Assembly: GCF_000021865.1 (NCBI RefSeq)
Contig: NC_014034.1
Coordinates: forward strand, 1,350,001 to 1,382,000
Direction of reading: 5' to 3'
Source: Rhodobacter capsulatus SB 1003
GTDB lineage: Bacteria; Pseudomonadota; Alphaproteobacteria; Rhodobacterales; Rhodobacteraceae
DNA: 32,000 nt
Position numbers and translations under genes: made by a program. A model generated the notes under the pieces. The model was not told where the DNA came from. It saw only the letters and a program-made list of their open reading frames with translations, and searched no databases. Of the stretch, positions 8,648 through 28,625 are shown one piece after another (within the stretch, counting starts at the first letter, position 1; the number at the start of each line of letters is the position of its first letter).

Positions 8648-8971
8648 GCCCAGACACCTCTCCCGCCAGTAAGCGGATTGAGACTCTTCCATCGAGCACT
8701 TGCAACCAAACACCCCGTGCCCAGACACCTCTCCCGCCAGTAAGCGGATTGAGACCTCCTTTCTCCACCCCGCGGGGTGTGCGCACGTGGCCCAGACACC
8801 TCTCCCGCCAGTAAGCGGATTGAGACGGGCGTATTCACGGCCCACCAACGCCCCCCATGCGGTGCCCAGACACCTCTCCCGCCAGTAAGCGGATTGAGAC
8901 GGAAGATTTTCGGTCATCTTACGCGATCCGCATAGCCCAGACACCTCTCCCGTCCATAAGCGGGTCAGCCG
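8648..8971 (+). CRISPR. CRISPR array 2: 5 repeats (last degenerate), 4 spacers
   Basis: Same 37-nt repeat at 8648-8684, 8719-8755, 8790-8826 and 8864-8900. A degenerate terminal copy lies at 8935-8971 (GCCCAGACACCTCTCCCGTCCATAAGCGGGTCAGCCG). Spacers are 34, 34, 37 and 34 nt. Degeneration at the right end supports a leader on the left and plus orientation. Confidence 0.95.
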
Positions 8972-9807: not shown

Positions 9808-9985
9808 GGCGCAGTCTTTCGCCGCGCGGAGGCAAAGATCAAGCCCGGCGTGTTTGCCGCGGCGAAAGGCCATTGCGAGGGCGGCAAAATGCGCTCAGGA
9901 AGGGGGAGAAAAGAAAAACCCCCGACCGGGGTCGAGGGCCTGCTAGCGGCGTACCGCTTCGCGTGGATGTTCGCGAGGTAGCAGA

Positions 9986-10630
9986 TTGAGCGAAAAAGAT
10001 CAACAGGAAACAAGGGCCGCGCGCGCGGCGCTTTATATCGACGGGTTCAACCTTTATCACGCGATCGACCGGCTGGGGCAGCCGCATCTGAAATGGCTCA
10101 GCTATTGGCGGCTCGGTCAGGTGATCTTGCCGCAAAAGACGCAAAAGCTGGTGCGGGTGGTCTATTGCACGGCGTTTTATCCCGGTTCGGCGGGCAAGCG
10201 CTGGCGGCACGAGCAGGTGATCGCGGCGCAGCGGGCCGAGGGGGTGGAGGTGGCGCTGGGCCATTACGTGCATGAGCGGATGATGTGTCGCAGTTGCGGC
10301 GATCGCTGGGAGAAGCCGACCGAGAAGGCGGGGGATATCAACCTCGCCATCCATCTGATGCATGACGCGTTCGAAGATGTGTTCGACCATGCCTATCTGC
10401 TGACGGCCGATTCCGATCAGGCGGCGACGGCGGCGATGTTCGCGCGGCACTTTCCCGAGAAGCGGCTGACGACGGTGGCGCCGCCCGGCCGCGACCCTTC
10501 GGTGCATATCCTGCGCCACGCCTCGGGCGGCAAGATCAAGCTCAATGCCGGGCATCTTGAGCGCGCGGTGATGGGGGCCACGGTCGGCAAGGCGCGGCGG
10601 CCCGACGAATACGCCCCGCCCGAGGGCTGA
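9986..10630 (+). CDS. NYN/LabA-like (PIN-related) predicted RNase
   Basis: ALYIDGFNLYHAID at the N-terminus, CRSCGDRWEKPTEKAGDINLAIHLMHDA and LLTADSD together form the NYN (DUF88/LabA) motif set. TTG start at 9986, with no in-frame ATG upstream of the domain. Confidence 0.75.
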   Translation: MSEKDQQETRAARAALYIDGFNLYHAIDRLGQPHLKWLSYWRLGQVILPQKTQKLVRVVYCTAFYPGSAGKRWRHEQVIAAQRAEGVEVALGHYVHERMMCRSCGDRWEKPTEKAGDINLAIHLMHDAFEDVFDHAYLLTADSDQAATAAMFARHFPEKRLTTVAPPGRDPSVHILRHASGGKIKLNAGHLERAVMGATVGKARRPDEYAPPEG

Positions 10631-10633
10631 GGC

Positions 10634-11104
10634 TCAGCGGCCTTGCGTCAGTTCAAGCCAGACCTGTGCCATCGCCTCGGCATCCGGCCCGGCCCGGTGC
10701 GGATGCGGCAGCGTGGCGAGCAGATCCTGCGCGCGGCCGAGCGCCTCTGCGCCGAAAGTATCGCTGACCGCATCGTCGAAATGCAAAAGCTGCACCGGGC
10801 GGCGCAGCAGCATCGTCAGCCATTTGCCGTCGAATTCGGGGCAGTCGGAAAGGACATGAGCCCCAAGCCGCGCTTCGACCGCCTCGGCGACGATCTCGGC
10901 CGCGGGGGCGGTGTGCAGTTGTTCCCGCGCGATGCCGTGGATCTCTGCCGAACGCGGATCCCAGTCGGCCTCGCTCCAGCCCGGGCGAGGGTGAATGAGG
11001 CAAGACCATGTCTCGATGCCAAGGGAGGAGAGCCGCGACAACCCGATTTCGATAGGCCAACCCGTCAGGCTCGAGGCTTCGATGTCGATGAAGATCGGGG
11101 TCAT
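10634..11104 (-). CDS. DEDDh (DnaQ-like) 3'-5' exonuclease
   Basis: FIDIEASS (DxE), SDCPEFDGKWL (D) and HRAGPDAEAM (H-x4-D) give the DEDDh motif order. Convergent with the NYN gene with only 3 nt between the stops. Confidence 0.75.
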   Translation of the reverse strand: MTPIFIDIEASSLTGWPIEIGLSRLSSLGIETWSCLIHPRPGWSEADWDPRSAEIHGIAREQLHTAPAAEIVAEAVEARLGAHVLSDCPEFDGKWLTMLLRRPVQLLHFDDAVSDTFGAEALGRAQDLLATLPHPHRAGPDAEAMAQVWLELTQGR

Positions 11105-13828: not shown

Positions 13829-14121
13829 GTCCCAGCTTCATCCAGATGCTCGATCATCCGCGCAAGGATCGAGCGTTGCGCCGGTCTCGGATTTTCTGCA
13901 GCGAGTTTCAGCGCCAGATCGCGTAACAGCGCAACATCGATCCCTGGCCGCGCGAGATGATCGAGCAGAAGCCGTCGAGCCAGCAAACCGGACGAGCGTA
14001 GCCCCGAAGCCAGGGCCGCTGCCTCGACGGCCCGGAACTCATGCGGGTAGAGTCGGCAAGCGACGATCTCCGTCGCTTTCCGCTTTTCCGAGCGCGCTTT
14101 AGTTGCGCCCTCCTTCATCAC
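13825..14121 (-). CDS. mobC: MobC-like relaxosome accessory protein
   Basis: IVACRLYPHEFRAVEAAALASGLRSSGLLARRLLLD matches the MobC (ribbon-helix-helix) pattern. It lies immediately upstream of the relaxase and is translationally coupled to it. Confidence 0.75.
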   Translation of the reverse strand: MMKEGATKARSEKRKATEIVACRLYPHEFRAVEAAALASGLRSSGLLARRLLLDHLARPGIDVALLRDLALKLAAENPRPAQRSILARMIEHLDEAGT

Positions 14122-14585
14122 ACCGTTCCGGTCTGATGAGCCGAGGGTTGCGGCAGAGGCGCGCCCGCAGACATCATCATTTCGGGCGTGCCAGAGCCGG
14201 ACGGATTGACCGCGATTAGCGGTTCGGCAGGCACCGCCGGGATCACCGCAGGCTCGGACGTTTGCGGGGCCTTCGTCGCGTCCATCTTTGCCTCGGTCTG
14301 ATCCGCTGACGCGGGTTTGCCGCTCTCGCGCATGTATCCTTTGAGCGTCTCCGTCGTCAGTTCGACTCCCAGTTCGCGCAACAGGGCCACGAGCTGTGCA
14401 TAGCTGACACCGCGCTTGAGCGCCGATTTGATCGGCTTTTTCAGCGCGCCCTTGATCGCCGCCGCAGCGGAAACGGGCTGGCGCCCGTCGGGCTTAATGT
14501 TCTTGAGCGCTTCGATGATCTTTGCCAGATCACCAACCGGAATCTGGTTGACGTGGCGGGCAGCTTGCGGGTTTTCAGTTTCCAT
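14118..14585 (-). CDS. Hypothetical protein, first gene of the mob operon
   Basis: ATG at 14583-14585 is preceded by GAGG at a 5-nt spacing (a GTG at 14591 is also possible). VSYAQLVALLRELGVELTTETLKGYM looks like a helix-turn-helix. The C-terminal half is Pro/Ala-rich and probably disordered. Confidence 0.5.
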   Translation of the reverse strand: METENPQAARHVNQIPVGDLAKIIEALKNIKPDGRQPVSAAAAIKGALKKPIKSALKRGVSYAQLVALLRELGVELTTETLKGYMRESGKPASADQTEAKMDATKAPQTSEPAVIPAVPAEPLIAVNPSGSGTPEMMMSAGAPLPQPSAHQTGTV

Positions 14586-14811
14586 GGTCACCTCGGAATG
14601 TTGCGGGTGACCCTAATAATATGCAGGTTTTTCGCGCTGTCGTCTGCTATTGATTCGTAATCCACAATTTTCGGATGGTCTGGGAGACGGACAAATCCCG
14701 GCCTTTAGCGCGCTGTCGAGTGGTTCTGTGTCGATATTCCAATACCGTGATGTCGGCTTTCGATCCGTCCACAGCACGGAATTTCCGATCTGATCCCGGT
14801 GCAGGGTATCG

Positions 14812-14827
14812 CGGCGGTTAACCGCCG
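14812..14827. repeat. Perfect 16-nt palindrome CGGCGGTTAACCGCCG
   Basis: Read directly from the sequence. It lies 12 nt beyond the stop of the WYL regulator gene, inside the candidate oriT region. It could be a short terminator hairpin or a relaxosome or regulator site. Confidence 0.35.
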
Positions 14828-14838
14828 TTTCTTCCCGC

Positions 14839-15822
14839 TCAGGGCATCGAGCCGAAATCGCCCCGCCTGTGGCCCTCGACCAGCGCGCGCAGGCCCTTGG
14901 GCTCCAGCACCTCGACCGCATCGCCCCATTGATAGAGGTGCCACGCCATCTCCAGCCATCCGGCCGCCTCGAAGCGTACGATCAGGCCGCCGTCCGCCTG
15001 CCATTCCAGCCGCTGCGAGGGGTGGAAGCGGAACCCCGCCGCGCGCTCGGCGGCATGGGGGGCAAAGCGCCAGGCCACCGGGCCGAATTGCGCCGGGTCC
15101 TGCCAGACGCCGAAGGAGCGCGCGGCAAAGCGTTCCATCGAGAACGCCGGGTCCATCGCGAAACTCTCGTCAAGCACCTCGGCCGACAGGATCTGATCCA
15201 GCCGGAAGGTGCGGATCAGATCGCCCTTGGCCGGGTCGCGGGCGACCAGATAGGTGCGATGACCAAGCAGCACCCCATGCGGTTCCAGCACCCGCGCGGG
15301 CGCATCGTCGGATTTGTAGCGCACCCGCAGCCGGAACGGGCCGCGCAGGGCCTCGGTCACCGCGTCGAGGATTTCGGGCGCAAGGCTGACCCGAGGCCCC
15401 GGCCGGGTCACCGTGGCCAGCGCCTGCAGCACCGCCTCGGCATCGGCTTCGGCGCGGGCGGCATCGCGATTGCTCAGCCGCGCCAGAAGGCCATCGCGCA
15501 GCCCCGCCAGCGCCTGGCGGTGGCGCAGCCGCCCCTCGGCCACGGCCTCGCGCCCGGCGATGTCGAGCGCCTCGATCGCAGTTTCGGGGCGCAGCTGCAG
15601 CCGGTCGAGCGCGCCCGGGTCGATCCGCCAGCGCCGCTTGCGATCCTCGCCATCCTCGGCGGTGACATTGGCGAAGGTGGTCTCGAGCGCCTGCGTCATG
15701 CGTTGCGCCGTGCGGTGGGAAATCGAAAATTCCTCAACGATCTCATCGAGGCTGACCCCCGTGCGCCGCGCCGCCGCCATCTGCGCCAGACGGATCAGAT
15801 CCTGGGCCTTGGAAAAGGACAT
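14839..15822 (-). CDS. HTH-WYL-domain transcriptional regulator (BrxR/CapW-like architecture)
   Basis: N-terminal HTH (GVSLDEIVEEFSISHRTAQRM). Central WYL-type block LRVRYKSDDAPARVLEPHGVLLGHRTYLVARDPAKGDLIRTFRLDQI. C-terminal extension. Start taken at ATG 15820-15822 (a GTG at 15846 is possible). Divergent from mcrB. Confidence 0.8.
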   Translation of the reverse strand: MSFSKAQDLIRLAQMAAARRTGVSLDEIVEEFSISHRTAQRMTQALETTFANVTAEDGEDRKRRWRIDPGALDRLQLRPETAIEALDIAGREAVAEGRLRHRQALAGLRDGLLARLSNRDAARAEADAEAVLQALATVTRPGPRVSLAPEILDAVTEALRGPFRLRVRYKSDDAPARVLEPHGVLLGHRTYLVARDPAKGDLIRTFRLDQILSAEVLDESFAMDPAFSMERFAARSFGVWQDPAQFGPVAWRFAPHAAERAAGFRFHPSQRLEWQADGGLIVRFEAAGWLEMAWHLYQWGDAVEVLEPKGLRALVEGHRRGDFGSMP

Positions 15823-16010
15823 CGCCACCCCGACAGCAATTGACACCCCGCGACGTTAGGAATGATCTTGCGATCTGTCGAGGCGATTCCCTCGGGGGTC
15901 GATCACCAGACCTTTGGAGCACCTATGCGTTTTCTTGGCAGTCGCACCCGATTTCCCTTCCCCGATCCGATGTGGTCCGGGCAGGCCCTTTTTGTTTTGG
16001 AGGATTTTGC

Positions 16011-18437
16011 GTGACAGGAGTGACCGATACCCGTCGCCTTGTGTTTTACGACGCTGAGGGGGCACTGTATTTTCCGGTGCGTGACGGCGGCACGGGGAAG
16101 TCGATCTTCAAGATCAAGCCCAAGGGGGCCAGCAACCGCGCCGAGGACGCCATCCATCTTGAGGATTGGCTTGACGTCGCGCGGGCGATGCTGATCGACG
16201 GTCTGGCCGCGCGCTGCAGGGCCTTGTCCGGTGGACCGATCAATTACCTGCGGTTCGGGGCGCAAAAGCTGGTGCGCTACGAACTCGACCCGGAGTTGGC
16301 GGAAGCCTTGGGTATTGCGCCCACGGGTGTTGCCGGAGAGGAGACATCCGAAGTCTCCCGCGCCGCCATCGAGGCCGCGATGGATGCTTTTGACGCTTGG
16401 CGCCAGACCGGCGCGCAGGATGAGATCTTCGGCGCCTTTGGTGAGCCGCGCGACTATTGGGTGCGCTCGACGCGGGACCGGGAAAACCGGGTCTATCCGA
16501 CGAAACCCCTCGTTGGCTACCTGCGCGGCAAGACCGATCTGAGCGGCGGTTGGGGGCAACGGAACGACGCGGCGTCCTTCCTGCACAATGCAGGCTTCAT
16601 CATCGTCGATGCCGAGGATCGGCCCGTGCCCCCGCCCGAGCGTTACGACCACCTGATCCGCGATGCCGAGCGTGTCCGGCTGTGCGCGCGCAACTATCAC
16701 ATCGAGCCGGGGCGGGAGCAGGGGGCGGCCGAGGTCTCGATCCGCTCCGGCGATCTGGCCCGCGAAATGGGGCTGGAAAACGCCTTTCCGACCATTTGTG
16801 ACGCGCTGGGCGGCGCGAAATTCCAGACGCTTTGCGCCCTGCCGCCGCCCCGGTTCACCACGCCGAACCCGAGCAGCACCACAACCTTCACCTATGCCCT
16901 TGCCGCAGATGGGATCACGCCCACCATGACCGCCCCCGATCAAGCCCCCGTTCCCCCCACCAACCTGATCCTTTACGGCCCGCCCGGCACCGGCAAGACC
17001 TATGCGACGGCCTGGGAGGCGGTGAAGCTCTGCCTTGGCGCGGCGGCCGATCCCCTGCGCGACGATCGCAAGGCATTGATGGCCGAATACAAGCGGCTCT
17101 GCGAGGAGGGCCGGATCGAGTTCACCACCTTCCACCAGTCGATGTCCTACGAGGATTTCGTGGAAGGGCTCAGGCCGGTGACGGACGAGGGCGGATCGGG
17201 CTTCCGGCTCACACCGCGCGACGGCATCTTCAAGGAGATCAGCCGCCGGGCTTCCACCCGCCCGGATGATGATTTCGACCTGCCCGAGATCGACCGCAGC
17301 CGCCCGATCTTCAAGCTGAACATGATCGGCAAGGGCTGGCGGCCCGGTTACGATGTCTCGATCGCGACGGGGCGGATCTATTGGCTGTTCGGCGGCAAGC
17401 TGGATTGGTCCGATCCCCGGTTCGAGGACAAAGAGGCACTCGCGGCCCGTTGGCGTGAAACCTATCCCGAAGCGACGCTCAACCATGCCAGCATCGGAGG
17501 TACGCATTATTTTCGTTACGGTGCAAAAATCGGCGATTACGTTGCGCTGACGCATGGGCTGGACAGGGTGTTCGCCTTCGGGCGCATCACCGGGGATTAC
17601 GAATATCGCCCCGATCTTGCCCGTCCGGAGGTGGAAGACAGCCCCAACAGCCGGACCGTGGACTGGCTCTGGTCTGATCCCGTGGGCGTCGAGAGGGCGG
17701 CTTTCTACTCCGGCGCCTTCAATCCTGCGCACCCGCTTTGCGTGCTGAACGACAGTTTCGACCACGATGCCTTCGAAGCCGCGATCTTCGGAACCAAGGG
17801 CATTGCCGAACCCCATGTCCTGATCATCGACGAGATCAACCGCGCCAACATTTCCAAAGTTTTTGGCGAACTGATCACGCTGCTCGAAGCCGACAAGCGG
17901 CTTGGAGCGGCAAATGAAATCCGTCTGCGGCTGCCCTATTCCGGGCGCAACTTCGGGGTGCCCGCGAACCTGCACATCATCGGCACGATGAACACCGCCG
18001 ACCGCTCGATCGCGCTTCTGGACACCGCGCTGCGTCGCCGTTTCACTTTCCGCGAACTCATGCCCGACGCCTCGGTTCTGCCTGTCGATTGCGGCGGAGT
18101 GAACTTGCAAAAGCTGCTTGCCACGCTGAACGCCCGCATAGAATACTTCTTCGACCGCGAGCATCAGATCGGCCACGCCTATTTCACCGCCTGCACCACG
18201 CGCGACGACGTGGCCGAGGTGATGCGCTTCAAGATCATCCCGCTTCTGGCGGAATATTTCTACGAGGACTGGGGCAAGGTCGCGGCCGTTCTGGGCGATG
18301 GCTCGGGGCGCCCCGAGCGGTTCCTGCGCGCGGTGCCTCTTGAGCCGCCGTTCGGCTTGGGCGAGGAGGACATCGACGACAAGAAGGTCAGCTGGCAGAT
18401 CCTCGAAACGTTCGACTTTGCCGATTGCGCCGCATGA
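16011..18437 (+). CDS. mcrB: McrB-family AAA+ GTPase subunit of a type IV restriction system, 808 aa
   Basis: GTG 16011 is preceded by GGAGGA (15999-16004). Motifs: Walker A LILYGPPGTGKT, FHQSMSYEDFVEG, Walker B LIIDEINRANISKVFGE, McrB signature GTMNTADRSIALLDTALRRRF. The ORF-track start at 15840 (TTG) would overlap the divergent regulator and is rejected. Confidence 0.85.
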   Translation: MTGVTDTRRLVFYDAEGALYFPVRDGGTGKSIFKIKPKGASNRAEDAIHLEDWLDVARAMLIDGLAARCRALSGGPINYLRFGAQKLVRYELDPELAEALGIAPTGVAGEETSEVSRAAIEAAMDAFDAWRQTGAQDEIFGAFGEPRDYWVRSTRDRENRVYPTKPLVGYLRGKTDLSGGWGQRNDAASFLHNAGFIIVDAEDRPVPPPERYDHLIRDAERVRLCARNYHIEPGREQGAAEVSIRSGDLAREMGLENAFPTICDALGGAKFQTLCALPPPRFTTPNPSSTTTFTYALAADGITPTMTAPDQAPVPPTNLILYGPPGTGKTYATAWEAVKLCLGAAADPLRDDRKALMAEYKRLCEEGRIEFTTFHQSMSYEDFVEGLRPVTDEGGSGFRLTPRDGIFKEISRRASTRPDDDFDLPEIDRSRPIFKLNMIGKGWRPGYDVSIATGRIYWLFGGKLDWSDPRFEDKEALAARWRETYPEATLNHASIGGTHYFRYGAKIGDYVALTHGLDRVFAFGRITGDYEYRPDLARPEVEDSPNSRTVDWLWSDPVGVERAAFYSGAFNPAHPLCVLNDSFDHDAFEAAIFGTKGIAEPHVLIIDEINRANISKVFGELITLLEADKRLGAANEIRLRLPYSGRNFGVPANLHIIGTMNTADRSIALLDTALRRRFTFRELMPDASVLPVDCGGVNLQKLLATLNARIEYFFDREHQIGHAYFTACTTRDDVAEVMRFKIIPLLAEYFYEDWGKVAAVLGDGSGRPERFLRAVPLEPPFGLGEEDIDDKKVSWQILETFDFADCAA

Positions 18438-19741
18438 CCCAGTTTCACCTGCGCGAATGGGACCGGCTGCCCTTCGGCTCCGGGCCGGGGCAGATCCCCG
18501 AGCCCTTGGCCGAGCGGCTGGTCACTGTCGCCAAGGCCTCGCCCTTCGCCGGGTCGGGCGAGGGCGGGGTGCTTGAACATCTCCGCCATCACATCCGGGC
18601 GCGCGGCGTGGTGGGGGTGATCGCGGCCCCCGGGGTCAGCCTCGAGATTTTGCCCAAGATCGACCTGCCCCCGGGCGAAGCTGGAGAGACGCGCGAGACG
18701 GGCGATGCGGCGGTGCGCAGGCGACTGATCCACATGCTGGCCGTGGCGCTTGATCTGCGGCTCGATCTGGGCGCCGTCACCGGGCTCTCGTGGCAAAAGG
18801 AAACGCTCCTCGACATCCTGATCCGCATCTTCGCCGACAAGCTGACCGAGGCTTTGCGCCGGGGGATGCCGCGCCGCTACACCGGCCTTGAAGACGACCT
18901 GCCCGCCCTGCGCGGGCGACTCGACGTGACGCGGCAGTTCACCGCCCATGCCGTCAACCCGGCGCGGCTTGCCTGCCGCTTCGACGCGCTGAGCGAGGAT
19001 ATCGTGCTCAATCGCATCCTCAAGGCGACAGTCACGCATCTGGCGCGGATGACCGGCTCGGGTGCGCTGCGGGGACGGTTGCGGGAACTGGCCTTCGTCT
19101 ATGCCGACATCGCCGATGTGGCCCCGGCGGCGCTTGAATGGGACAAGGTCGTGCTGGATCGCACCAACCGCGCCTGGGCCGAGCTTCTGGCGATGGCGCG
19201 GCTCTTTCTGCAAAACCGCTATCAGACTACCTCGCTTGGCCGGGCCGAGGGGACGGCGCTTCTGTTCGAGATGGATGCGCTGTTCGAGGATTACATAGGG
19301 CGGCTGATCCGTCGGGGCGTGCAAAGCAGCGGCTTGAAGGTGACCTTGCAAGGCGGCGGTCTTTATTGCCTCGACGACGCGGGGCGCGGGCTTTTCCGCA
19401 CCAAACCCGACATCCTGATCCGGAGTAGCGGGCAGGTGGTGCAGGTGATCGACACGAAATGGAAGCGAATTTCGGCGCGGATCGAGGATGCGAAACAGGG
19501 CGTCTCGCAGGCCGATGTCTATCAGATGATGGCCTATGCCCAGCTTTACCGCGCCCCCCGAGTAACGCTGCTTTACCCCCATCATCAAGGGCTTGCGACG
19601 CCCGAGGGGGTGCAGGCGCGGTTCACGATCTCGGGGCGCCCGACCGTGGTTGAGACCGCCTCGATCGACGTGGGGCAGGGGGCTGGCATGGCCGCGCGGC
19701 TGGCCGCGCTGGTGCTGCCGGAGGCGGTGCTGCAAGGGTGA
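18434..19741 (+). CDS. mcrC: McrC-family PD-(D/E)xK nuclease subunit
   Basis: ATG 18434 overlaps the mcrB stop (ATGA). KPDILIRSSGQVVQVIDTKWKRI and QADVYQMMAYAQLY form the McrC catalytic D...D-x-K plus YQ..aY pattern. Confidence 0.85.
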   Translation: MTQFHLREWDRLPFGSGPGQIPEPLAERLVTVAKASPFAGSGEGGVLEHLRHHIRARGVVGVIAAPGVSLEILPKIDLPPGEAGETRETGDAAVRRRLIHMLAVALDLRLDLGAVTGLSWQKETLLDILIRIFADKLTEALRRGMPRRYTGLEDDLPALRGRLDVTRQFTAHAVNPARLACRFDALSEDIVLNRILKATVTHLARMTGSGALRGRLRELAFVYADIADVAPAALEWDKVVLDRTNRAWAELLAMARLFLQNRYQTTSLGRAEGTALLFEMDALFEDYIGRLIRRGVQSSGLKVTLQGGGLYCLDDAGRGLFRTKPDILIRSSGQVVQVIDTKWKRISARIEDAKQGVSQADVYQMMAYAQLYRAPRVTLLYPHHQGLATPEGVQARFTISGRPTVVETASIDVGQGAGMAARLAALVLPEAVLQG

Positions 19742-19801
19742 CAGGTTTTGGCGCATCTCTAGATCAATGTGGGGCAAGCCCTTTTGATCCGGAGATATGC
19801 C

Positions 19802-20524
19802 ATGCAGATGAATCACCTTGCCTTTGCCCGTTCCCCCTCGCTGCGTGTGTCGCTCAAGCGCGGTCTGGCGCGGCAGGCGCTGTCCGAGGCCGGAGCCGTC
19901 CCGATCGACATGGCCCGGCTGATCGCGCTGGCCAGCGACTTTCGCCCCAACCGCAAGGCGCTTGATCGGCTGGGGGGGCGCATCGGCCGTCTGCCCGGCG
20001 TGGTGCGGGTGCGGCTTTGCCCAGATCCGCTGCGCCTCGTGGTGGTCACCCGTGCTCCGCATGGCGTCGTCACCTGCCACGCGGGCGTCGAGCAATTCCG
20101 CGAGGAGAGCCTGCTTTATGTGCGCATGGAGGTCGGGATCGAGGCCGGGCGGGTGATGTTCGGCTTCACCGCCCTGAGCTATTGCCTGCATGCGATCGAA
20201 CGTCTGGTCGAACGCACCGACCTGCCGCTGCATCAGCCGCTGTTGCCCGTTCTGGATGCCGAAGCCTGCGCGGGCTTTGCCGATCTGATGGCCGGGCGGG
20301 AATTGACCGAGGCCGAGGCCACATTCCTGCCGGCGCAGGCCGAAGGGGTTTGGGTGGTCTCGTCCGACTGGATGGCCTTCGACACCGACTGGGGGCTGAC
20401 CTGCCTCGAGCCGCGCGGCATCCCGATGCACTCGATCCGCACCTTCCTTGCGCCCGAACAGATGCGCCCGACGCTCTGGCTGCGCTGGCGCGACAACCCG
20501 ACCTGCCGGATGGCACAGGGCTGA
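19802..20524 (+). CDS. Hypothetical protein (240 aa), no recognisable domain
   Basis: ATG 19802 is preceded by GGAGA (19791-19795). GC3-rich codons are consistent with coding. It starts 60 nt downstream of mcrC. Confidence 0.55.
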   Translation: MQMNHLAFARSPSLRVSLKRGLARQALSEAGAVPIDMARLIALASDFRPNRKALDRLGGRIGRLPGVVRVRLCPDPLRLVVVTRAPHGVVTCHAGVEQFREESLLYVRMEVGIEAGRVMFGFTALSYCLHAIERLVERTDLPLHQPLLPVLDAEACAGFADLMAGRELTEAEATFLPAQAEGVWVVSSDWMAFDTDWGLTCLEPRGIPMHSIRTFLAPEQMRPTLWLRWRDNPTCRMAQG

Positions 20525-20580
20525 GCAATGCGCCGGCGCCGATCGCCTTGGGGCGGGGTGTCACGTTTTATCAGCTGCCT

Positions 20581-20609
20581 TTGCCATGCTATTGCCAAAT
20601 CTGTATAAT
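20581..20609 (+). promoter_or_regulatory. sigma70-like promoter TTGCCA-N17-TATAAT
   Basis: TTGCCA at 20581-20586, a 17-nt spacer, and TATAAT at 20604-20609, in a local AT-rich patch. This predicts a start only a few nt before ATG 20621, giving a very short or absent leader. Confidence 0.45.
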
Positions 20610-20620
20610 TTGTGAGCGCC

Positions 20621-23236
20621 ATGAGACTGAGCCCGTTGCAGACTGCCTCGCCGGTGACCGGCGCCATCCGCCCGCTGACCACGGGGCTCTTGCGCGACAG
20701 CTACCTTGTGCCCCGTGCTGCCTTCGATCCCGATGCGGTCCTTGCGGCGCGGCCGGGTGCGCCCTGGGCGCAAAGCCTGGCCGTCGCGCCGGTGGAAACC
20801 GCGCTTGCGGTGCGTCGCGCGCTTGAGGCTCTGGCGCGCGCGACCGAGACCCTGACGCCTGCAGAGGTGCAGCCCGACCGCCTGCCCGAGGGGCGGGCGC
20901 GGGCGCATCTTGGCGCGCTCTGCGATCTCTGGTCCGATCTGGGCGGCGCGCTGCCCGAGGATTTGCACGTCTGGCGCCATGTGATCACGGCCGAGGCCGG
21001 GGCGGCGCTCGAACCGCTGCCGCTTCTGGCGCCGATCGACTGCCCCCATGCCACCGCTGCCGAAACGGCGTTGGCGCAGGCGCTGGTGCGCCAGCACGGG
21101 TTGGCCCCCGAGGCAGTGTCTGCGGCGTGGCTCGCCCGTCAACCGTCGCAATCGGCCTGTGCTACTGGCGCGCTGGGCCATGTGCAGGCCAACCTGACCG
21201 GCCTTGCCGCGCCCATTGCTCCCGACACCAGCCTGCAGATCTTCGGCTTGCGCGATCCGATGGAAGAGGCCGATTTCGCCGCTGCCACCGTGCAAGGCTG
21301 GCTTGACCGCGGCACCATCGACCACGCCGCGGAGGTGGGGCTGCTCGTGCCCGAGGATCCCGCCTATGCCTGCGCGCTGGCCGAGGCGTTCGAGCGGGTC
21401 GGCCTGCCGCTGTCGGGGGCTCCGGTGGGGGCGATCCTGCGCGACCCGGCGGCCGATCTGATCGCGGCGCTGCTGCCCGTGTTGCGCGGCCCCGCGCCGC
21501 GCACGGCGCTGGCCAGCGTCGTCATTTCGCCGCTGATGCCCTGGCCCGCCGCCACCGGCCGCGCCATTGCGCGTGATCTGATCGCGCGGGGGTATTCGCG
21601 GCTCTGGCGCGAGCTTGACGGCGCCGGTGCCGCGCTGCTCAATGCGCTGCGCCCGGTGGCCAGCCTGCCCGCGCTCTTCGCGCGGCTGGGCGAGATCGAC
21701 ACGCTCATCACCCCGCCCGGCAGCCTGCGCCTGCAGATCGCGCTTTTGCGCAGCCAAGGCGGCGAGCGCCCCGATTGGCCAGCACTTCTGGCCCTTGTCG
21801 CGCCTCTGCCGTTGCCCGGGATCGCCGCGCCGCGCACCGTCGAGGGGGTCAGCGTGTTCACCGAGAACGACCTGCCCTGGCGCTCGGTGCGGCGGCTGAT
21901 CGTCCTCGGGATGCAGGGGCGCAGCTGGCCTCGGCCGCAACCTGCGAACCCGTTCTTCACCGAGACCGAGATTGCGTTGATCGGCACCGCCACCGGGCTG
22001 CATCTTCCCGGCCGCGCCCGAGAGACCGCGCGTCGGCTGGAACTCTTTCGCCGCCAGCTTTGCGCTGCGACCGAGGCGGCGGTGCTTCTGGCCCCGGCGC
22101 GCGATATGGCGGGGGCACGGCTGCCGCCCAGCACGGCGCTTGCGCTGATCGCCCGGCTTCTGGGCCAAACCGATCCGGCGCATCTGGTGGTCGATCCGCG
22201 CCAATTGTCCCCCTCCGCGCAGCCCTTCGCGCTGACCCCGCGCACCCCCGACGCGCACGCCGGGCGCCCCGATCTGCCTGAGAGTGGCGATGTCACGCTG
22301 GGCCGCGATCTTCTGGCCTTGAAAGGCGCGGCCGGGGCGGATCCGCCGCCGCAATCGCCGAGCCAGCTCGAGACCCTGATCGTCTCGCCGCTGGCCTGGC
22401 TTCTGGCCGAGATCGACGCGCGCGATCGCATCTGGTCGCCGGAAACGCTGGATGTTCTGGTGCTGGGGACCGTGGTGCATGGCGTGCTCGAACGCGTTTT
22501 TCCGCCCGAGACGCCGCCCCCCGCGCCCGAGGACATGCCGCGCCTGACCGAGGCGGCCCTGGCCGAGGTGATCGCGCGCAAGGCTTCCTGGCTTGCCGAA
22601 CCGGCCTGGGCTGCCGAACGCGCGAGCCTTGCGCGCGAGGCGCTGCGGGTGGTGCAGGGCTGGGCGCGGTTTCTGACCGAGACCGGCGCGATGACGCTGG
22701 CGAACGAGATTTCGCTGGCGGGCGATCACGGCGGGCTCCTCATGGCCGGTCGCGCCGACGGTCTGTTGCGCCTGCCCGACGGGCGGCATCTGGTGATCGA
22801 TCACAAGCGCGGCACGTCCGGCAAGCGGCGCCGTCGGATGCAGCTGGGCTGGGATCTGCAGGTCGCGCTCTATCGTGCGATGCTCGAACGTCCGAGTCAG
22901 ACTTCGGCCCTGACCGACGCGGTGGCGTCCGGTTCGCCGATCGTCACCGCCTATCACACAACGCTTGATGGTGCGGTGCTGACCGACGGGGCCGGGGCGG
23001 GGCTGGCGCGTGCCGAATGCCCCGCAACCGACCCCGCACGCGAAGCGCTGGCGCATCTGGTCGAGGTGACGGCCGAGGTCGGCGCTGGGCGGCTGCGGCT
23101 CAATACTGCGAGCGATGCGGTGCGGTTTGAAAAGGAGCGCGGCATCACCGCCTATGCTCTGGCGGGCGATGAGCTGATTGCCGCGCTCATGCTGCCCGAG
23201 CCGGAGGACGCGGCCGAGGAGGGGATCGATGACTGA
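20621..23236 (+). CDS. AddB/RexB-like subunit: degenerate helicase fold + C-terminal PD-(D/E)xK nuclease
   Basis: No Walker A is visible. VSVFTENDLPWRSVRRLIVLGMQGRSWP resembles the AddB 2A-domain block. C-terminal nuclease motifs: GTVVHGVLE, GRADGLLRLPDGRHLVIDHKRG, QVALYRAML. The stop overlaps the start of the downstream helicase by 8 nt. The start could be GTG 20612. Confidence 0.65.
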   Translation: MRLSPLQTASPVTGAIRPLTTGLLRDSYLVPRAAFDPDAVLAARPGAPWAQSLAVAPVETALAVRRALEALARATETLTPAEVQPDRLPEGRARAHLGALCDLWSDLGGALPEDLHVWRHVITAEAGAALEPLPLLAPIDCPHATAAETALAQALVRQHGLAPEAVSAAWLARQPSQSACATGALGHVQANLTGLAAPIAPDTSLQIFGLRDPMEEADFAAATVQGWLDRGTIDHAAEVGLLVPEDPAYACALAEAFERVGLPLSGAPVGAILRDPAADLIAALLPVLRGPAPRTALASVVISPLMPWPAATGRAIARDLIARGYSRLWRELDGAGAALLNALRPVASLPALFARLGEIDTLITPPGSLRLQIALLRSQGGERPDWPALLALVAPLPLPGIAAPRTVEGVSVFTENDLPWRSVRRLIVLGMQGRSWPRPQPANPFFTETEIALIGTATGLHLPGRARETARRLELFRRQLCAATEAAVLLAPARDMAGARLPPSTALALIARLLGQTDPAHLVVDPRQLSPSAQPFALTPRTPDAHAGRPDLPESGDVTLGRDLLALKGAAGADPPPQSPSQLETLIVSPLAWLLAEIDARDRIWSPETLDVLVLGTVVHGVLERVFPPETPPPAPEDMPRLTEAALAEVIARKASWLAEPAWAAERASLAREALRVVQGWARFLTETGAMTLANEISLAGDHGGLLMAGRADGLLRLPDGRHLVIDHKRGTSGKRRRRMQLGWDLQVALYRAMLERPSQTSALTDAVASGSPIVTAYHTTLDGAVLTDGAGAGLARAECPATDPAREALAHLVEVTAEVGAGRLRLNTASDAVRFEKERGITAYALAGDELIAALMLPEPEDAAEEGIDD

Positions 23237-26200
23237 TCTGACGCTTGTTCCTGCTGGCGCCGGGGCCGGCAAGACCACCCGCATCCAGCGCACCGTGGCG
23301 GGCTGGGTCAGCGCGGGTCTGGTCGCGCCGGGGCGCATTCTGGCGGTGACCTTCACCGAGGCGGCGGCGGCGGAACTCAAGGCGCGCATCCGCGCCCAAC
23401 TGATCGCGCAAGATCAGGTCGCCGAGGCGCTTGAGTTGGAACGCGCCTACATCGGCACGATCCACGGCCTTGGCCAGCGGCTCTTGACGGAACATGCCTT
23501 CGGCGCCGGGCGCGCACCGGTCAGCCGGCTGCTGACCGAAGCCGAACGCGATCTGCTGATCCGGCTGCAGATGGGCGGCTGTGGTCCGCTGCAAGAGGTG
23601 ATGGGCGATCTTGCGCGGTTTGGCTACGCGTGGAACCGGCAGACCGGGGCCAGCGCCGAGGATCAGTTCCGCGCCGATGTGCTGCGCACGATCGATCTGT
23701 TGCGCGGGCTTGGCGCGCGGGGCGCGAGCCCCGATGTGCTGGCGGGCGCGCTTGCGGCGCTTGACGCCGGATACGGCCCGCGCGCAGCTGAAGGTGCCCC
23801 CCTGACTGACGCGTTGCGCCGCGCCGCGCAGGCATTGCTGGCGCGGTTTCCCGAAGGGATCGCCGATCAGGCCACGAGCGATGCGGCGATCAAGGCCTTC
23901 CGCGACGACCATGCCCGGTTGCGCCGCGCCGCCGAAACCGATGCGCTCAACAGCGACTGGGGCCTGTGGCAGAAGTTGCGCACGCTGCGCCAATCGAAAC
24001 GCGGTGCCCCCACGCCCGAGGGCTATGACGCGCTCGCGCAGGGGGTGATGGAGGCGGCCGAGGCGCTGCTGATCCATCCCGGCCCGCTCACCGATGCCCG
24101 CGCGCATCTGGCCGCGCTGATCCACGGCGCGCAGGCTCTTATGGCGGGCTATGACGCGGCCAAACGCGCGGGCGGGCTGATCGATTTCGCCGACATGATC
24201 ACCGAGACCGAGGCGCTGCTCGCGGCCCGCCCCGAGATCCTTGCCGCGACGCTGGGCGAGATCGACTGCGTGGTGATCGACGAGTTTCAGGACACCAACC
24301 CGGTGCAATTCTCGCTGCTGTGGCGGCTCGCGCGGGGGGCGGCCCGCGCGCTGATCGTGGGTGATACGAAACAGGCGATCATGCGGTTTCAGGGCGCCGA
24401 TCCGCGGCTTTCGGGCGCCCTGCACGCGGCCTGCCCCGAGGCGGTCGATCCGCTTGATCACAATTACCGCTCCGATCCGCGGATCATGCGTTTCGTCAAC
24501 GCGCTTGGCCCGGTGCTGTTTCCCGAAGGCTACGACGCACTTGCGCCCCATCGCGCCGAAACCGGCGTTCCCGCGCTCGAGGCGCTGGTGCTGCCGAAGG
24601 CGAAAAAGGATGTCAGCGCGCCGTGCATCGCGGCCCATGTCGCGGCGCTGCTGCACGAGGGGGCGCAGGTGAGCGACCGTGCCACAGGCCAGTTGCGCGC
24701 GGCGCAGCCCTCGGATGTGGCAGTGCTGTGCTACACCGCCGCCAAGGCGGCCAGCGTCGCCAAGGCCCTGCGTGCCGAAGGATTTGCGGTGCGAATTCAA
24801 GCCGATGGCTGGCGTGCCGCGCCGATCATCCGGGTGGTGCGGGCGGCGTTGGCGCTGGTGGCTGACCCCGAGGACAGCCATGCCGCGCTGCGCTATCTCA
24901 CCCTTGGTCCGGCGCGCTTGCCGCTGCAAGCCGCGTTGACGCTTGCGATCGATGGCGCGCTTGCGACCCATGCCGGGCTGGCGCCGCTCTTGTCGCTGGC
25001 CGAGGACGCCCCGCATCTGACCGTCGCGGCGCTGCTGTCGAAAATCATCCCGGCGGCGGGTCTGCGCGACTGGGCCGCAACGCTCGAGGCGCCCGCGCAG
25101 GCGCTGGCCGATCTGGCCCGGTTCGAGGCCGAGGCGCAGGCCTTCGACGCGCTCGCCGCCGATCTGAAGGCGGCGGCGGGGTTTCATGGCGCCTCGGCGC
25201 AGGTGTTTCTGGGCTGGCTTGCGGCACAGACCGGGCGCGATGTCGACCGCCATCCCGATGCCGCCGGCTGGTCCGCGCCGGGGATCGAGATCTGCACCTG
25301 GCATGCCGCGAAGGGGCGGGAATGGCCGATCACCGTGGTGGCCGGGCTCGATTACAAGTTCATCGCCCGTCCCAATACCCTGCGCGCCGAATTCGACGGT
25401 TTCGACGATCTGGATGCGGTGCTAGATCATGCCGGGCTCGGCTGGCTGCCCGATTTTGCAGCGCCCGAAAAGCAGGCGGCCTTTGCCGAGGCGCTGGTGG
25501 CTGACGACGAACGCGACGCTGCGCGTGAACTCTATGTGGCGCTGACCCGGGCGCGCGACCGGCTGATCCTCGCCCTGCCGACTGCACCCTCGAAGGAAAA
25601 GCCGCGCCCGGAGCGGATGGTCGATCTGCTGCGCGCCCGCAGCGGGCTTGCTACCACCACCGACGGCACGGGCCTGACGATCTGCGGCGAAAGCTTCCCG
25701 GCGCGGGTGGTGATGGCCGCCGATCCTGACGCTGGCGCCGAGGCTGCCCCCGATCCGCAGCCGGTGCCGCGCTTTGGGCTTGCCCGCCCGCATCCCGGCA
25801 CGCCACTGCGGCTTTGGCGCACCACCCCCTCGGGTCTCATTGCGCCCGCAGATGCCGCCCGGCCCAACCTGCGCCTCATCGCCCTTGGCGCAGCGGTGCG
25901 GCGTCAGCGCGACGGCTTCGATCTGGCGACCGAGCGCGGTTCGGCCTGGCACCTTGCCTTTCGCGTCGCCGCCGAGCGCCCCGAACGTCTGGCCGAGGTC
26001 GGCCCCGCCACCGGTCTTGCCCCCGACACCGTGGCCCAGATCGCGGCGCAGGCGGCGGCTCTGCGGCACTGGCTTCTGGCCGAGGGGTTTGACCGGCTGC
26101 ATTTCGAACTGCCCTTGCAGGAAATCGCTGCCGATGGCTCGGAGATCAACGCCATCGTCGATCTTCTGGCCGAGGGGCCGCAGGGGCTGTTGATCGTCGA

Positions 26201-26378
26201 TCACAAATCCGGCGCCTGTCCCTACCCCGAGGCGCGCTTTGCCGGCTATGCCTCGCAGCTGCAGGCTTATGCCGGTCTGGCCGAACGCGCCTTTGCCAAG
26301 CCGGTGCGGGGGCTTGCGGTGAACTGGATGAACGAGGGTGAGGTCTCGGTGCTCGATCTTCAGGAGGTCCCGGCCTGA
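23229..26378 (+). CDS. AddA-like UvrD/Rep-family helicase with C-terminal RecB-type nuclease, 1049 aa
   Basis: SF1 motifs appear in order: PAGAGAGKTT, AVTFTEAAAAELKARI, GTIHGLGQRLL, VVIDEFQDTNPVQ, LIVGDTKQAIMRFQGAD, HNYRSDPRI, TWHAAKGREWP, LYVALTRARDRLIL. C-terminal nuclease: RGSAWHLAF ... LLIVDHKSG ... YASQLQAYAGL. Confidence 0.8.
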   Translation: MTDLTLVPAGAGAGKTTRIQRTVAGWVSAGLVAPGRILAVTFTEAAAAELKARIRAQLIAQDQVAEALELERAYIGTIHGLGQRLLTEHAFGAGRAPVSRLLTEAERDLLIRLQMGGCGPLQEVMGDLARFGYAWNRQTGASAEDQFRADVLRTIDLLRGLGARGASPDVLAGALAALDAGYGPRAAEGAPLTDALRRAAQALLARFPEGIADQATSDAAIKAFRDDHARLRRAAETDALNSDWGLWQKLRTLRQSKRGAPTPEGYDALAQGVMEAAEALLIHPGPLTDARAHLAALIHGAQALMAGYDAAKRAGGLIDFADMITETEALLAARPEILAATLGEIDCVVIDEFQDTNPVQFSLLWRLARGAARALIVGDTKQAIMRFQGADPRLSGALHAACPEAVDPLDHNYRSDPRIMRFVNALGPVLFPEGYDALAPHRAETGVPALEALVLPKAKKDVSAPCIAAHVAALLHEGAQVSDRATGQLRAAQPSDVAVLCYTAAKAASVAKALRAEGFAVRIQADGWRAAPIIRVVRAALALVADPEDSHAALRYLTLGPARLPLQAALTLAIDGALATHAGLAPLLSLAEDAPHLTVAALLSKIIPAAGLRDWAATLEAPAQALADLARFEAEAQAFDALAADLKAAAGFHGASAQVFLGWLAAQTGRDVDRHPDAAGWSAPGIEICTWHAAKGREWPITVVAGLDYKFIARPNTLRAEFDGFDDLDAVLDHAGLGWLPDFAAPEKQAAFAEALVADDERDAARELYVALTRARDRLILALPTAPSKEKPRPERMVDLLRARSGLATTTDGTGLTICGESFPARVVMAADPDAGAEAAPDPQPVPRFGLARPHPGTPLRLWRTTPSGLIAPADAARPNLRLIALGAAVRRQRDGFDLATERGSAWHLAFRVAAERPERLAEVGPATGLAPDTVAQIAAQAAALRHWLLAEGFDRLHFELPLQEIAADGSEINAIVDLLAEGPQGLLIVDHKSGACPYPEARFAGYASQLQAYAGLAERAFAKPVRGLAVNWMNEGEVSVLDLQEVPA

Positions 26379-26579
26379 TCGTTGTGCGGGTACGAAACGC
26401 CGCCGCAGGCTGCCGTCTTGCCGATCCTGCGTGACTGCGCATCTTGTGCCTGATAAAAAAGGAAAATCCGCAGATTCGAGCGGCGCTTCGACCAATCCTC
26501 GTCGGCGGCCGGGTCCCCTGGTCCGGACGCCAGCATGAGTGCATTTTCCGCTGCATGAATAGAAAGCTGACCCGATATC

Positions 26580-28625
26580 ATGTCTTCGATTGCCGATCTT
26601 GTTCTTGACCATCTGGGCCAGCCTGTCGAAACGGCTGTCTTGTTTCTGGCCGGTTTGCTGAGATCCGAGGGCACGCCCGGGGTGGTGGTGGTCTTGCTCT
26701 TGGCGGCGATGCTGGGGTTCCTTGCCTTTGGAATTGGCCGGATGAGAGGCCAGGCGGTGCTCTTGCGTCGGTTCGCGGAGGTTTTGGACCAGGTTCCGGT
26801 CGAGGAGATTGCCCAAGGCGGGCTTGAACGCGTCGCGCCAGAACTTGGCCGGGTGGCTGCGGGCAACTCCGGCGCGACCTTGCGCGAAGCCTGGGACGAG
26901 TTCAGCGAGACGTTGATCATCGACGACCGCGCAGAACCGCCGGTCGTGCGCAACACCGCGCGCCCGGGGGTGTTCTTCAACATCGAGGATCTGGGCTATG
27001 GCCCGGGGTTCCTGCGCATCCTGCCGGGCATGTTCGTCTCGGTTGGCCTTGCGCTGACCTTTTTGGGCCTGATCGCCGCCCTGCATCAGATGTCGGATGG
27101 CCAGATCACCTCTGCCACGATGCAAAACCTGCTCAAGATCGCCTCGGCGAAGTTCATCATGTCGCTGACCGGTCTGGTTTGCTCGATCGTGCTGACCATT
27201 CAGCTGCGGATCAGCATGGGCGGTGTCGAGGCCGCGTTGCACCGGCTGGTGCGGCTTTTGGAAGAGCGGCTCAGCTTTGCCAGCCTCGAACAGATCGCGC
27301 TGGAACAGTTGCGTGCGCAAAGCAAGGCCGAGGAGGCAAACCGCAAGCTGGGCTGGGAACTGGTCGCCGAATTGGGCCGCCCCCTGCGCGAGGAGCTGCC
27401 GTTGGCGATTTCCACCTCGATCAGCGAAGCGATGCAGCCGATTTTGGACAAGGTCAGCGCGCAAGGCACTTCAAGCGTCAGCACGATGGCGCATGATCTT
27501 TCGCAGCAGGTGTCAAACGGGGTGGAGCGCGCGCTCACCGTGGCCAGCGACCGGATCGCGCAGGCGGGTGATCGGATCGCGCAACTGGCGGAACGGATGG
27601 ATCAATCCTCGGGCCGGATGGGCACCGAGATGGATCAGGCGGTGCAGCGGGTGGCGCAGGCTGTCGACGACTTGCGCGGTGCGATGAGCGCCACGGCGCA
27701 ATCCACCAGCGGGGCCTTTACCCAGGGCGCCGAGCAACTGCTTTCGGTGATGAACGCGACGCTGGAGGGTATTCGCCAGAACACCGGCGAAGGGGCGCGG
27801 GCGATGTCGGAGGCGGCGGCGGACATGCGCAGCGCCGCCAGTTCGATGCGGGAGGAGATGGAAGGGGCGGCGCGCAGCGGGGCCGAGGCAGCGCAGGCCC
27901 GGATGCAGGCGGCAGGGGTCGAAGCGGGCGCGGCCATCGACGGCGCCAGCCGTTCGGTGCTGGAGGCCTTTGCCTCGGCCAGTGGCAAGATCACCACACT
28001 GACAGACGAGATGTTCGTCAAGGCGGGGGCGGAACTCCTCTCGCCGATCTCGAATGCCGCCGAGCAGCTTGATGCGTTGGTGGGGGCACTGGAAGAAAGC
28101 GCAGCCAATGCCCGCCAGACCGCCGAGAGTTTGCGCGCGGGCGCACAAGCCGGGGCCGAGGCTGCGGGCACCTTCCGCGGCGCCTCGGCCGATCTGGTAG
28201 CCGCCGCCGGTCCGGTTCGCGCCACCACCGAGCGCATCGAGGGCGCGATCCGCACGCTGTCGGACAGCACGGCGCAGGTGGCCGGCACGGTGAGCCGCAG
28301 CGCCGAGGCCACGGCGACCTCGGCGCGCCAGACCCTTGAGGCCGCGCGCGAAACTCTCGGGGCGCAGCAGCGTTCGATCGAGGCGGCGTTGCAGGGGGTG
28401 GAATCGCTCGTGCGCCGGATGCAGGGGCAGGGTGAGCGGCTTGATACGCTGGACGAAAAGCTGGGCCGGGCCTTCGAGCTTTACGCCAATCAGACCGAGG
28501 GCGCGATGCAGTCGATCCGCGCGCATGTGGTCGACATGTCGAAGGGGCTCAATACGGCGCTGGCCACCCTGCAGACGATCGTCGATCAGCTGCAGGAGTT
28601 CCAGCCGCAGCAGGGGCGTAGGTGA
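26580..28625 (+). CDS. zorA: ZorA (MotA/ExbB-like membrane protein with long helical tail)
   Basis: N-terminal TM segments and a MotA-like block (FLRILPGMFVSVGLALTFLGLIAALHQM, KFIMSLTGLVCSIVLTI) are followed by about 400 aa of Ala/Glu/Gln-rich helical tail. It sits directly upstream of a MotB-like gene. Confidence 0.8.
   Translation: MSSIADLVLDHLGQPVETAVLFLAGLLRSEGTPGVVVVLLLAAMLGFLAFGIGRMRGQAVLLRRFAEVLDQVPVEEIAQGGLERVAPELGRVAAGNSGATLREAWDEFSETLIIDDRAEPPVVRNTARPGVFFNIEDLGYGPGFLRILPGMFVSVGLALTFLGLIAALHQMSDGQITSATMQNLLKIASAKFIMSLTGLVCSIVLTIQLRISMGGVEAALHRLVRLLEERLSFASLEQIALEQLRAQSKAEEANRKLGWELVAELGRPLREELPLAISTSISEAMQPILDKVSAQGTSSVSTMAHDLSQQVSNGVERALTVASDRIAQAGDRIAQLAERMDQSSGRMGTEMDQAVQRVAQAVDDLRGAMSATAQSTSGAFTQGAEQLLSVMNATLEGIRQNTGEGARAMSEAAADMRSAASSMREEMEGAARSGAEAAQARMQAAGVEAGAAIDGASRSVLEAFASASGKITTLTDEMFVKAGAELLSPISNAAEQLDALVGALEESAANARQTAESLRAGAQAGAEAAGTFRGASADLVAAAGPVRATTERIEGAIRTLSDSTAQVAGTVSRSAEATATSARQTLEAARETLGAQQRSIEAALQGVESLVRRMQGQGERLDTLDEKLGRAFELYANQTEGAMQSIRAHVVDMSKGLNTALATLQTIVDQLQEFQPQQGRR

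Follow-up and report, generated by a model that had tools for sequence, protein, structure and literature searches.

Introduction

Families of addA and addB genes are common in Alphaproteobacteria, as papers on the gene transfer agent (GTA) have noted. AddAB (RexAB; Bacillus subtilis structures PDB 3U4Q/4CEJ; models TIGR02784/TIGR02786) is encoded by two adjacent genes, one for a subunit with a live UvrD-type superfamily 1A (SF1A) motor and a RecB nuclease, and the other for a partner in which a RecB nuclease is joined to an inactivated helicase-like fold. The mycobacterial AdnAB is likewise a heterodimer of the helicase-nuclease type, each subunit of which has a RecB nuclease, and RecBCD consists of three subunits including the superfamily 1B (SF1B) protein RecD. 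Here we describe a pair of overlapping genes in a 32,000-nucleotide stretch of the Rhodobacter capsulatus SB 1003 genome (NC_014034.1, positions 1,350,001 to 1,382,000; hereafter the window), which encode an AddB-like protein of 871 amino acids (aa) and an AddA-like protein of 1049 aa. We rate this pair as an AddAB-type enzyme that has been redeployed as a WYL-regulated defence-island module and is frequently fused into Azaca operons.

The explanation that we favour, with a probability of roughly 0.6, is that the pair acts as a WYL-controlled accessory exonuclease module of the AddAB type that degrades linear foreign DNA, and not as the housekeeping enzyme of end resection. The pair probably serves in defence, directly or as an accessory module, and has so far not been catalogued. 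PADLOC 2.0.0 holds no model for the AddB-like subunit and literature searches gave no description of the pair, in agreement with the initial annotation of this DNA, which was aware of no such catalogued system. The nearest and only precedent found for AddAB-like defence pairs was that of the UvrD-Cas4 (pfam12705) fusions, which have been predicted to be ancillary to several defence systems (Hudaiberdiev et al. 2017, PMC5704561). These also combine an SF1 UvrD-type helicase with a PDDEXK_1 nuclease and lie near restriction systems and WYL/helix-turn-helix (HTH) regulators; however, each of them is one fused polypeptide, and they are linked to type III restriction-modification or Dcm/Vsr (PMC5704561), whereas the pair has two subunits, one of them an inactivated-helicase partner, and is linked to Azaca, McrBC, BREX and Zorya. 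In PADLOC 2.0.0 the 1049-aa protein was matched solely by generic GajB/UvrD models, and in its helicase core only. The combination of a nuclease with an NTPase is common to the pair and Gabija; no GajA (OLD/Toprim) match was present among the neighbours of the pair. Nhi and Hna belong to other families and consist of one protein each.

The two genes and their junction

The AddB-like gene extends from 20621 to 23236 on the + strand (open reading frame (ORF) options 20612/20621-23236), and its start at ATG 20621 is backed by the N-termini of its homologues (MR[IL]xP...). The AddA-like gene occupies 23229-26378 on the same strand (ORF options 23178/23229-26378). Its product has 100% identity to a protein named from R. 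capsulatus, and several assemblies contain DNA identical to that of the window. The overlap of 8 nucleotides (nt) at 23229-23236 claimed in the initial annotation was confirmed by the junction sequence, GAGGAGGGGATCGATGACTGA, in which the AddA-like ATG is located at 23229 and the AddB-like TGA at 23234-23236. A Shine-Dalgarno-like run, GAGGAGGGG, lies upstream of the AddA-like ATG, and the AddA-like gene directly followed the AddB-like gene in every locus with enough sequence (81/81). Based on this overlap and the strict adjacency, the pair is probably made by coupled translation.

Two loci depart from this arrangement. The AddB-like gene of another R. capsulatus sequence (L001, CP198954.1, 7391-10008) is annotated as two ORFs because the DNA, identical in all other respects, contains two insertions of 1 bp; these are probable assembly errors, and the split was not used as a sign of dispensability or of a pseudogene. 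In Chachezhania antarctica (L041, 10001-14164), one ORF (P0080, 1397 aa) contains most of the AddB-like protein and the C-terminal part of the AddA-like protein, and it is a fusion of natural origin or else derives from a deletion.

The AddB-like subunit

PDDEXK_1 at residues 582-768 (E 1.6e-19) was the sole Pfam match of the 871-aa protein. In an alignment of 29 sequences of its family (33-87% identity), the nuclease residues D713, D727-x-K729 and Q747...Y751 were invariant. No P-loop or other ATPase motif (Walker A, Walker B) was conserved in the same alignment, and no helicase family of Pfam was matched. In addition, the 29 sequences share no invariant or near-invariant Cys, which means that the four Fe-S cysteines that flank the nuclease domain in AddB are absent.

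The 871-aa protein itself gave zero sequence matches in PDB and none in PADLOC; against NCBIfam, it matched only TIGR03623 (E 0.006, 15 bits) and no AddB model. A profile of its family searched against the PDB sequences retrieved AddB only, with a marginal score (E 0.039). When the AlphaFold2 (AF2) model of the protein (predicted local distance difference test (pLDDT) 86.4) was compared with known structures by Foldseek, AddB chains ranked at the top (4cej_B, E 5e-18), followed by AdnA and RecC, the template modelling (TM) score of the AddB match being only about 0.35 for this multidomain model. The modelled fold and the motif content suggest that the 871-aa protein is AddB-like, with a helicase-like N-terminal region devoid of ATPase motifs and a C-terminal RecB-family PD-(D/E)xK nuclease. 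The reading of this protein in the initial annotation, an inactivated helicase fold plus a PD-(D/E)xK nuclease, is thus upheld by the missing P-loop, the invariant nuclease residues and the top fold match to AddB.

The AddA-like subunit and the architecture of the pair

The 1049-aa protein matched UvrD-helicase (E 7.5e-44), UvrD_C and PDDEXK_1 (residues 913-1042) of Pfam. Walker A GxGKT (G14-K15-T16), DEFQD (351-355) and motifs III-VI of the motor were invariant in its family, as were D978, D991-x-K993 and Q1010...Y1014 of the nuclease. With the family profile, the first match in PDB was B. subtilis AddA (3u44_A, E 8.7e-44), followed by UvrD, PcrA, AdnB and RecB. The protein is a complete SF1A UvrD-type motor with a C-terminal RecB-family nuclease, and both the Pfam matches and the invariant motifs bear out the earlier description of a UvrD-type SF1 helicase with all motifs and a RecB-type nuclease of its own.

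With AddB as the closest fold to the 871-aa protein and AddA as the closest sequence to the 1049-aa protein, the AddAB/RexAB architecture proposed for the pair holds (4cej_B for the fold, 3u44_A for the profile). The pair has one live motor and two nucleases, and this architecture is of the AddAB type, being neither that of AdnAB nor that of RecBCD. In AdnAB both subunits have ATPase-competent UvrD-type motors, in contrast to the 871-aa subunit with its lack of Walker A and Walker B, and no RecD-like gene adjoins the pair in the window or in the annotated relatives. Nevertheless, the pair is not canonical AddAB. Its proteins are shorter than those of the PDB structures (871 residues against 1166 in the AddB chain, and 1049 against 1232 in the AddA chain), and the AddA-like protein scored 5- to 7-fold under the equivalog cut-offs of the alphaproteobacterial and Gram-positive AddA models (126 bits vs 861 for TIGR02784 addA_alphas; 134 bits vs 708 for TIGR02785 addA_Gpos). 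These helicase scores, the lack of an AddB model match and the missing Fe-S cysteines set the pair apart.

Distribution of the pair

Of the 185,579 species genomes scanned (one for each species, with a pattern as seed), 127 contained relatives of the pair, and this number is a lower bound. The carriers were nearly all Alphaproteobacteria (Rhodobacterales, Rhizobiales, Sphingomonadales and Acetobacteraceae), with one Azonexus. An exhaustive profile search of 1.84 billion proteins yielded 305 representative clusters (50% identity) at E <= 1e-30. The family was present on 10 plasmids, 7 of them predicted to be conjugative, and insertion sequence (IS) elements flank the plasmid examples. Antarcticimicrobium and Sedimentimonas each have two divergent copies per genome. 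In the phage genomes, no record contained a relative of the AddB-like protein. Because the distribution is patchy and includes plasmids and double copies, the pair shows the pattern of an accessory, horizontally moving pair.

These data also bear on the possibility that the pair is simply the housekeeping AddAB of R. capsulatus, as its AddAB-like architecture and gene order might lead one to assume. Canonical AddAB is a conserved housekeeping locus, whereas the pair is patchy in distribution, borne on plasmids and islands, and co-operonic with WYL, Azaca or McrBC genes, and the synteny in its relatives is variable and not of the housekeeping kind. Together with the missed AddA and AddB cut-offs, this agrees with the earlier view of the pair as accessory, and its identity with the housekeeping enzyme is scarcely credible and already contradicted. 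A canonical addAB is expected elsewhere in R. capsulatus.

A second explanation is that the pair serves the maintenance of mobile elements, or is a passenger of them, acting in plasmid or integrative and conjugative element (ICE) establishment, anti-restriction or element recombination, and merely resides in defence-rich variable regions. Its presence on IS-flanked conjugative plasmids and the relaxase gene near it in the window would be consistent with such a role. In most loci, however, the pair is unlinked to transfer genes, and the relaxase is missing from the closely related locus L096. Moreover, its translational coupling to Azaca and the constancy of the order WYL-pair-Azaca in divergent taxa, which are described below, exceed what co-location would give, and we consider this explanation highly improbable.

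Genomic context across loci

The context set consisted of the window and 84 fetched loci, and the context census covered at most 80 loci from the pattern-seeded scan; neighbouring genes were grouped by cross-locus conservation clustering of six-frame ORFs. A recognised defence marker was present within 10 kb in 68 of 82 loci, so that the association with defence islands now has a stronger basis than the initial annotation had given it. The genes that come next downstream were tallied in those 70 loci that had 3 kb or more of sequence past the pair. ZacABC (Azaca) was found at this position in 23 loci (PADLOC ZacA E 2e-121, ZacB 1e-165, ZacC 0) and a divergent Azaca-like trio, consisting of a 412-aa unknown protein, a ZacB-like phospholipase D (PLD) protein and an SNF2-type helicase, in another 16; ZacABC or the Azaca-like trio is thus in the operon of the pair in 39 of the 70 relatives. 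McrBC came next in 4 loci, and Zorya in 1 (this window). The stop codon of the helicase gene and the start codon of the ZacA or ZacA-like gene overlap by 1 nt in every annotated example. In addition, an HTH-WYL-WCX (BrxR-like) regulator gene was present in 53 of 82 loci and was located directly upstream of the pair on the same strand in 35 of 75. The link of the pair to a BrxR-like WYL regulator and to translationally coupled Azaca or Azaca-like operons is therefore tight and repeated, and it extends the initial annotation. The pair is nevertheless not confined to Azaca: it was also found with McrBC, with Zorya or alone, and ZacA (DUF6361), ZacB (PLD nuclease) and ZacC (superfamily 2 helicase) are all absent from the window.

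Coupling to nucleolytic systems could also be explained by self-protection, in which the pair would resect and recombinationally repair chromosomal breaks made by McrBC, Azaca and Zorya and would thereby cut the autoimmunity cost of the island. The architecture is that of bona fide repair enzymes, the pair is co-operonic with the nucleolytic systems, and it lies under a WYL regulator, DriD and PafBC being WYL-type regulators that control DNA-damage responses (PMC9186387). On the other hand, repair of the AddAB type needs a host-specific Chi, and plasmids carry the family between Rhodobacterales, Rhizobiales, Sphingomonadales and Acetobacteraceae, in which Chi should differ. The hosts are also expected to own AddAB already, and the pair occurs without a nuclease partner in Ruegeria atlantica, where it is flanked by RES-Xre toxin-antitoxin pairs on one side and a Bil-like ubiquitin system on the other. 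Since the hosts should differ in Chi and the pair has no AddB Fe-S module, Chi-regulated repair seems less likely than plain destruction of linear DNA, and we regard self-protection as unlikely.

The Azaca-like trio (L065, L066, L071-L091, L092 and L093; e.g. L092 15747-21302) was not recognised as Azaca by PADLOC. Its members are an unknown protein of about 410 aa, a protein of about 600 aa with weak similarity to ZacB (PLD), and an SNF2/DEAD helicase of about 850 aa that is closest to PDC-M27C. A second clade of loci carries, immediately 5' of the pair, genes for an AAA ATPase (IetA-like), then a WYL protein, then a fused phosphatase/ADP-ribosylglycohydrolase. On plasmids, an eight-gene cassette comprises an IetA-like double-AAA ATPase, a WYL protein, a phosphatase/ADP-ribosylglycohydrolase fusion, the AddAB-like pair and the Azaca-like trio. 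BREX genes (BrxL, PglX) were located upstream of the pair in 6-7 loci.

A gene family of 224-237 aa lies between the WYL gene and the AddB-like gene (L008 9317-9991, L024 9223-9936 and 13 other loci). Its proteins contain an Rx4H HEPN-type motif, RLYVLR[CN]Q[LM][VM]HGG, and have no match in Pfam or PADLOC; on a Fuscovulum plasmid, the gene at this position is annotated as a HEPN domain-containing protein.

Promoter, operator-like motif and WYL regulator

A σ70-like promoter, TTGCCA-N17-TATAAT, is located at 20581-20609 on the + strand (TTGCCA at 20581-20586 and TATAAT at 20604-20609). The near-consensus quality attributed to it was verified: 11 of 12 consensus positions are matched, and no other site within the 13 kb from 14000 to 27000 reaches this score. 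In the same interval, 3 sites had at least 9 of 12 matches, compared with 1.1 +/- 0.9 in shuffles. The −10 hexamer ends 11 nt before ATG 20621, which would place the predicted transcription start at about 20615-20617 and leave a leader of only some 4-6 nt before that ATG. The promoter is kept base for base in L096, the AddB-like protein of which is 91% identical to that of the window, but not in Sedimentimonas.

An operator-like 15-mer, GTCACGTTTTATCAG, was found at 20560-20574 (+), 6 nt upstream of the −35 hexamer of this promoter, and this copy is kept in both L096 and Sedimentimonas. The motif has the form GACAG-nTTTT-GnCAC, with a pseudo-palindrome TGACA-N5-TGTCA. Of 83 loci, 22 had the motif at a fixed distance (−61 to −76) in front of the start codon of the AddB-like gene; with a background of 0.012 expected per 90-nt window in the same loci, about 1 locus would be expected. 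A second copy stands just upstream of the adjacent WYL gene in several loci (L011, L020, L028 and L031). This position-specific test across loci is the only convincing evidence for the 15-mer. A 10-mer, GGGGTGTCAC, that is common to both control regions was not significant in the window alone, since 50 of 100 shuffles gave at least 2 matches.

The BrxR-like regulator gene of the window (HTH-WYL-WCX; Pfam WYL, WCX and HTH_11; PADLOC WYL) is located at 14839-15846 on the − strand. In a regex scan of the window, two further copies of the 15-mer were found on the + strand, GACAGGTTTTGGCGC at 19740-19754, just upstream of an orphan gene, and GACAGCAATTGACAC at 15832-15846, in the divergent WYL/McrB control region. 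The 15-mer is our candidate operator, to which the BrxR-like WYL regulator probably binds, and within the window this regulator probably controls McrBC, the orphan gene and the pair. The three copies fit a single putative WYL-controlled regulon of McrBC, the orphan gene and the pair; this common motif, which seems to tie the three together, goes beyond the initial annotation.

DriD, a WYL regulator, has single-stranded DNA (ssDNA) as its allosteric ligand, for which AddAB has been named as the likely source (PMC9186387). The pair might likewise be a signal generator, the resection products of which (ssDNA or oligonucleotides) induce the adjacent BrxR-like WYL regulator in a feed-forward induction of the island. 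The WYL gene directly upstream of the pair, the operator-like motif common to the upstream regions of the WYL gene, the pair and McrBC, and the DriD precedent (PMC9186387) would all suit this proposal. However, the ligand of BrxR-type repressors is not known, the pair would need to be expressed before induction, and about one third of the loci are without a WYL gene within 10 kb; the proposal is very doubtful. A broader version would make the pair the sensing arm of a multi-system immune island, which resects ends born of infection or made by McrBC, Azaca or Zorya, with ssDNA as the long-sought ligand of the BrxR-type WYL protein and feed-forward induction of every operon that has the common operator. 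We consider this version quite unlikely.

Neighbourhood in the window

Between the WYL gene and the pair, genes for an McrB-like AAA+ GTPase and McrC (type IV restriction) occupy 16011-19741 on the + strand (Pfam AAA_5 and McrBC; gene calls in L002). Downstream, after an intergenic gap of 201 nt, a type I Zorya system (ZorA, ZorB, ZorC and the start of ZorD; PADLOC ZorA1 (E 1e-295), ZorB1, ZorC1 and ZorD1) extends on the + strand from 26580 to beyond 32000. The location of the pair between McrBC and Zorya, as first described, is therefore correct. In L096 the order is WYL(−)-McrBC-(102 aa)-pair, and Zorya and the relaxase, NikA-like and DUF6471 genes are lacking. Because L096 has WYL-McrBC-pair without Zorya, the unit in this lineage is WYL plus McrBC plus the pair, and Zorya is merely the next tenant of the island; McrBC is the probable functional partner of the pair in this clade. 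The McrB homologue of L096 (5696-8215) has an N-terminal domain of the ScoMcrA_N type, which is not listed for the R. capsulatus assemblies. This suggests that the DNA-reader domain of McrB has been swapped between close relatives.

The orphan gene lies at 19802-20524 on the + strand and encodes 240 aa. Its family is confined to Rhodobacterales (84 homologue clusters, all unnamed), and in 6 other pair-carrying loci its homologues adjoin the WYL gene on the opposite strand. The protein had no match in Pfam, NCBIfam, PADLOC or PHROG. Its AF2 model is of high quality (pLDDT 89.5, predicted TM score (pTM) 0.86) and gave no significant fold match in PDB or BFVD; it is a fold without a known match. 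A relationship to the HEPN-like 237-aa family was ruled out (hhalign probability 0.3).

A block at 11708-14591 on the − strand, between a CRISPR locus and the WYL-McrBC block, contains genes for a MobA/VirD2 relaxase (11708-13828, −), a NikA-like protein and a protein with a weak DUF6471 match. The region may be a mobilizable element, as first described, and the basis for this consists of the nearby relaxase and NikA-like genes. No integrase was found in the window.

The CRISPR locus is a type III CRISPR-Cas system at 13-9873 with Cas10, Csm3-like RAMP fusions, a fusion of reverse transcriptase (RT) and Cas1 (6526-8133, −) and Cas6 (8965-9873, −), and with two short arrays at 6300-6477 and 8648-8973 (repeats of 36-39 nt). 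Next to it, an NYN-domain gene at 9986-10630 matches the PADLOC candidate HEC-09 (E 7e-39). An unusually long (95-nt) tRNA-Arg call by ARAGORN over the 3' end of this gene (10577-10671) is probably false, as there was no Rfam tRNA match at the gathering score.

Discussion

By analogy with AddAB, the two subunits would associate as a heterodimer, engage free ends of double-stranded DNA, unwind them with a single 3'-5' motor, and cut and degrade both strands. The only active motor of the complex, of the SF1A type, would come from the 1049-aa subunit together with one RecB-type nuclease; the 871-aa subunit would add the other RecB-type nuclease and a scaffold formed by its inactivated helicase-like region. 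The target would be linear foreign DNA, including fragments that neighbouring systems produce, namely the Azaca or Azaca-like trios in most relatives and McrBC and Zorya here. McrBC is a modification-dependent endonuclease, and host AddAB can be inhibited by phages. The recurrent linkage of the pair with Azaca and McrBC points to an exonuclease that would remove the fragments made by these systems, as a finishing or as a backup enzyme, and the pair may serve as such an exonuclease-V-like module independently of host AddAB.

Several points weigh against this exonuclease-module interpretation. In canonical AddAB, the Fe-S cluster of AddB is needed for end binding; the pair lacks this cluster, and its recognition of ends may differ. 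No recognised partner came next downstream in 26 of the 70 loci of the tally. In addition, Azaca does not generally require the pair, because the Bacillus system, which cleaves T4 DNA in vitro, needs ZacABC only (bioRxiv 10.1101/2025.07.10.664194).

If the pair contributes to immunity, a two-subunit AddAB-type enzyme joins the defence repertoire, and it would provide a concrete end-degrading 'finisher' that is hard-wired to endonucleolytic systems such as Azaca and McrBC. In that case, it would also bear on the synergy of co-located defence systems and on the bacterial answer to phage inhibitors of RecBCD and AddAB. The conserved layout of WYL gene, operator and pair offers a tractable route to the ligand of BrxR-family regulators. 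Finally, a name of their own and a function open to testing would become available for about 300 protein clusters, the present labels of which say no more than 'PD-(D/E)XK nuclease family protein' or 'UvrD-helicase domain-containing protein'.

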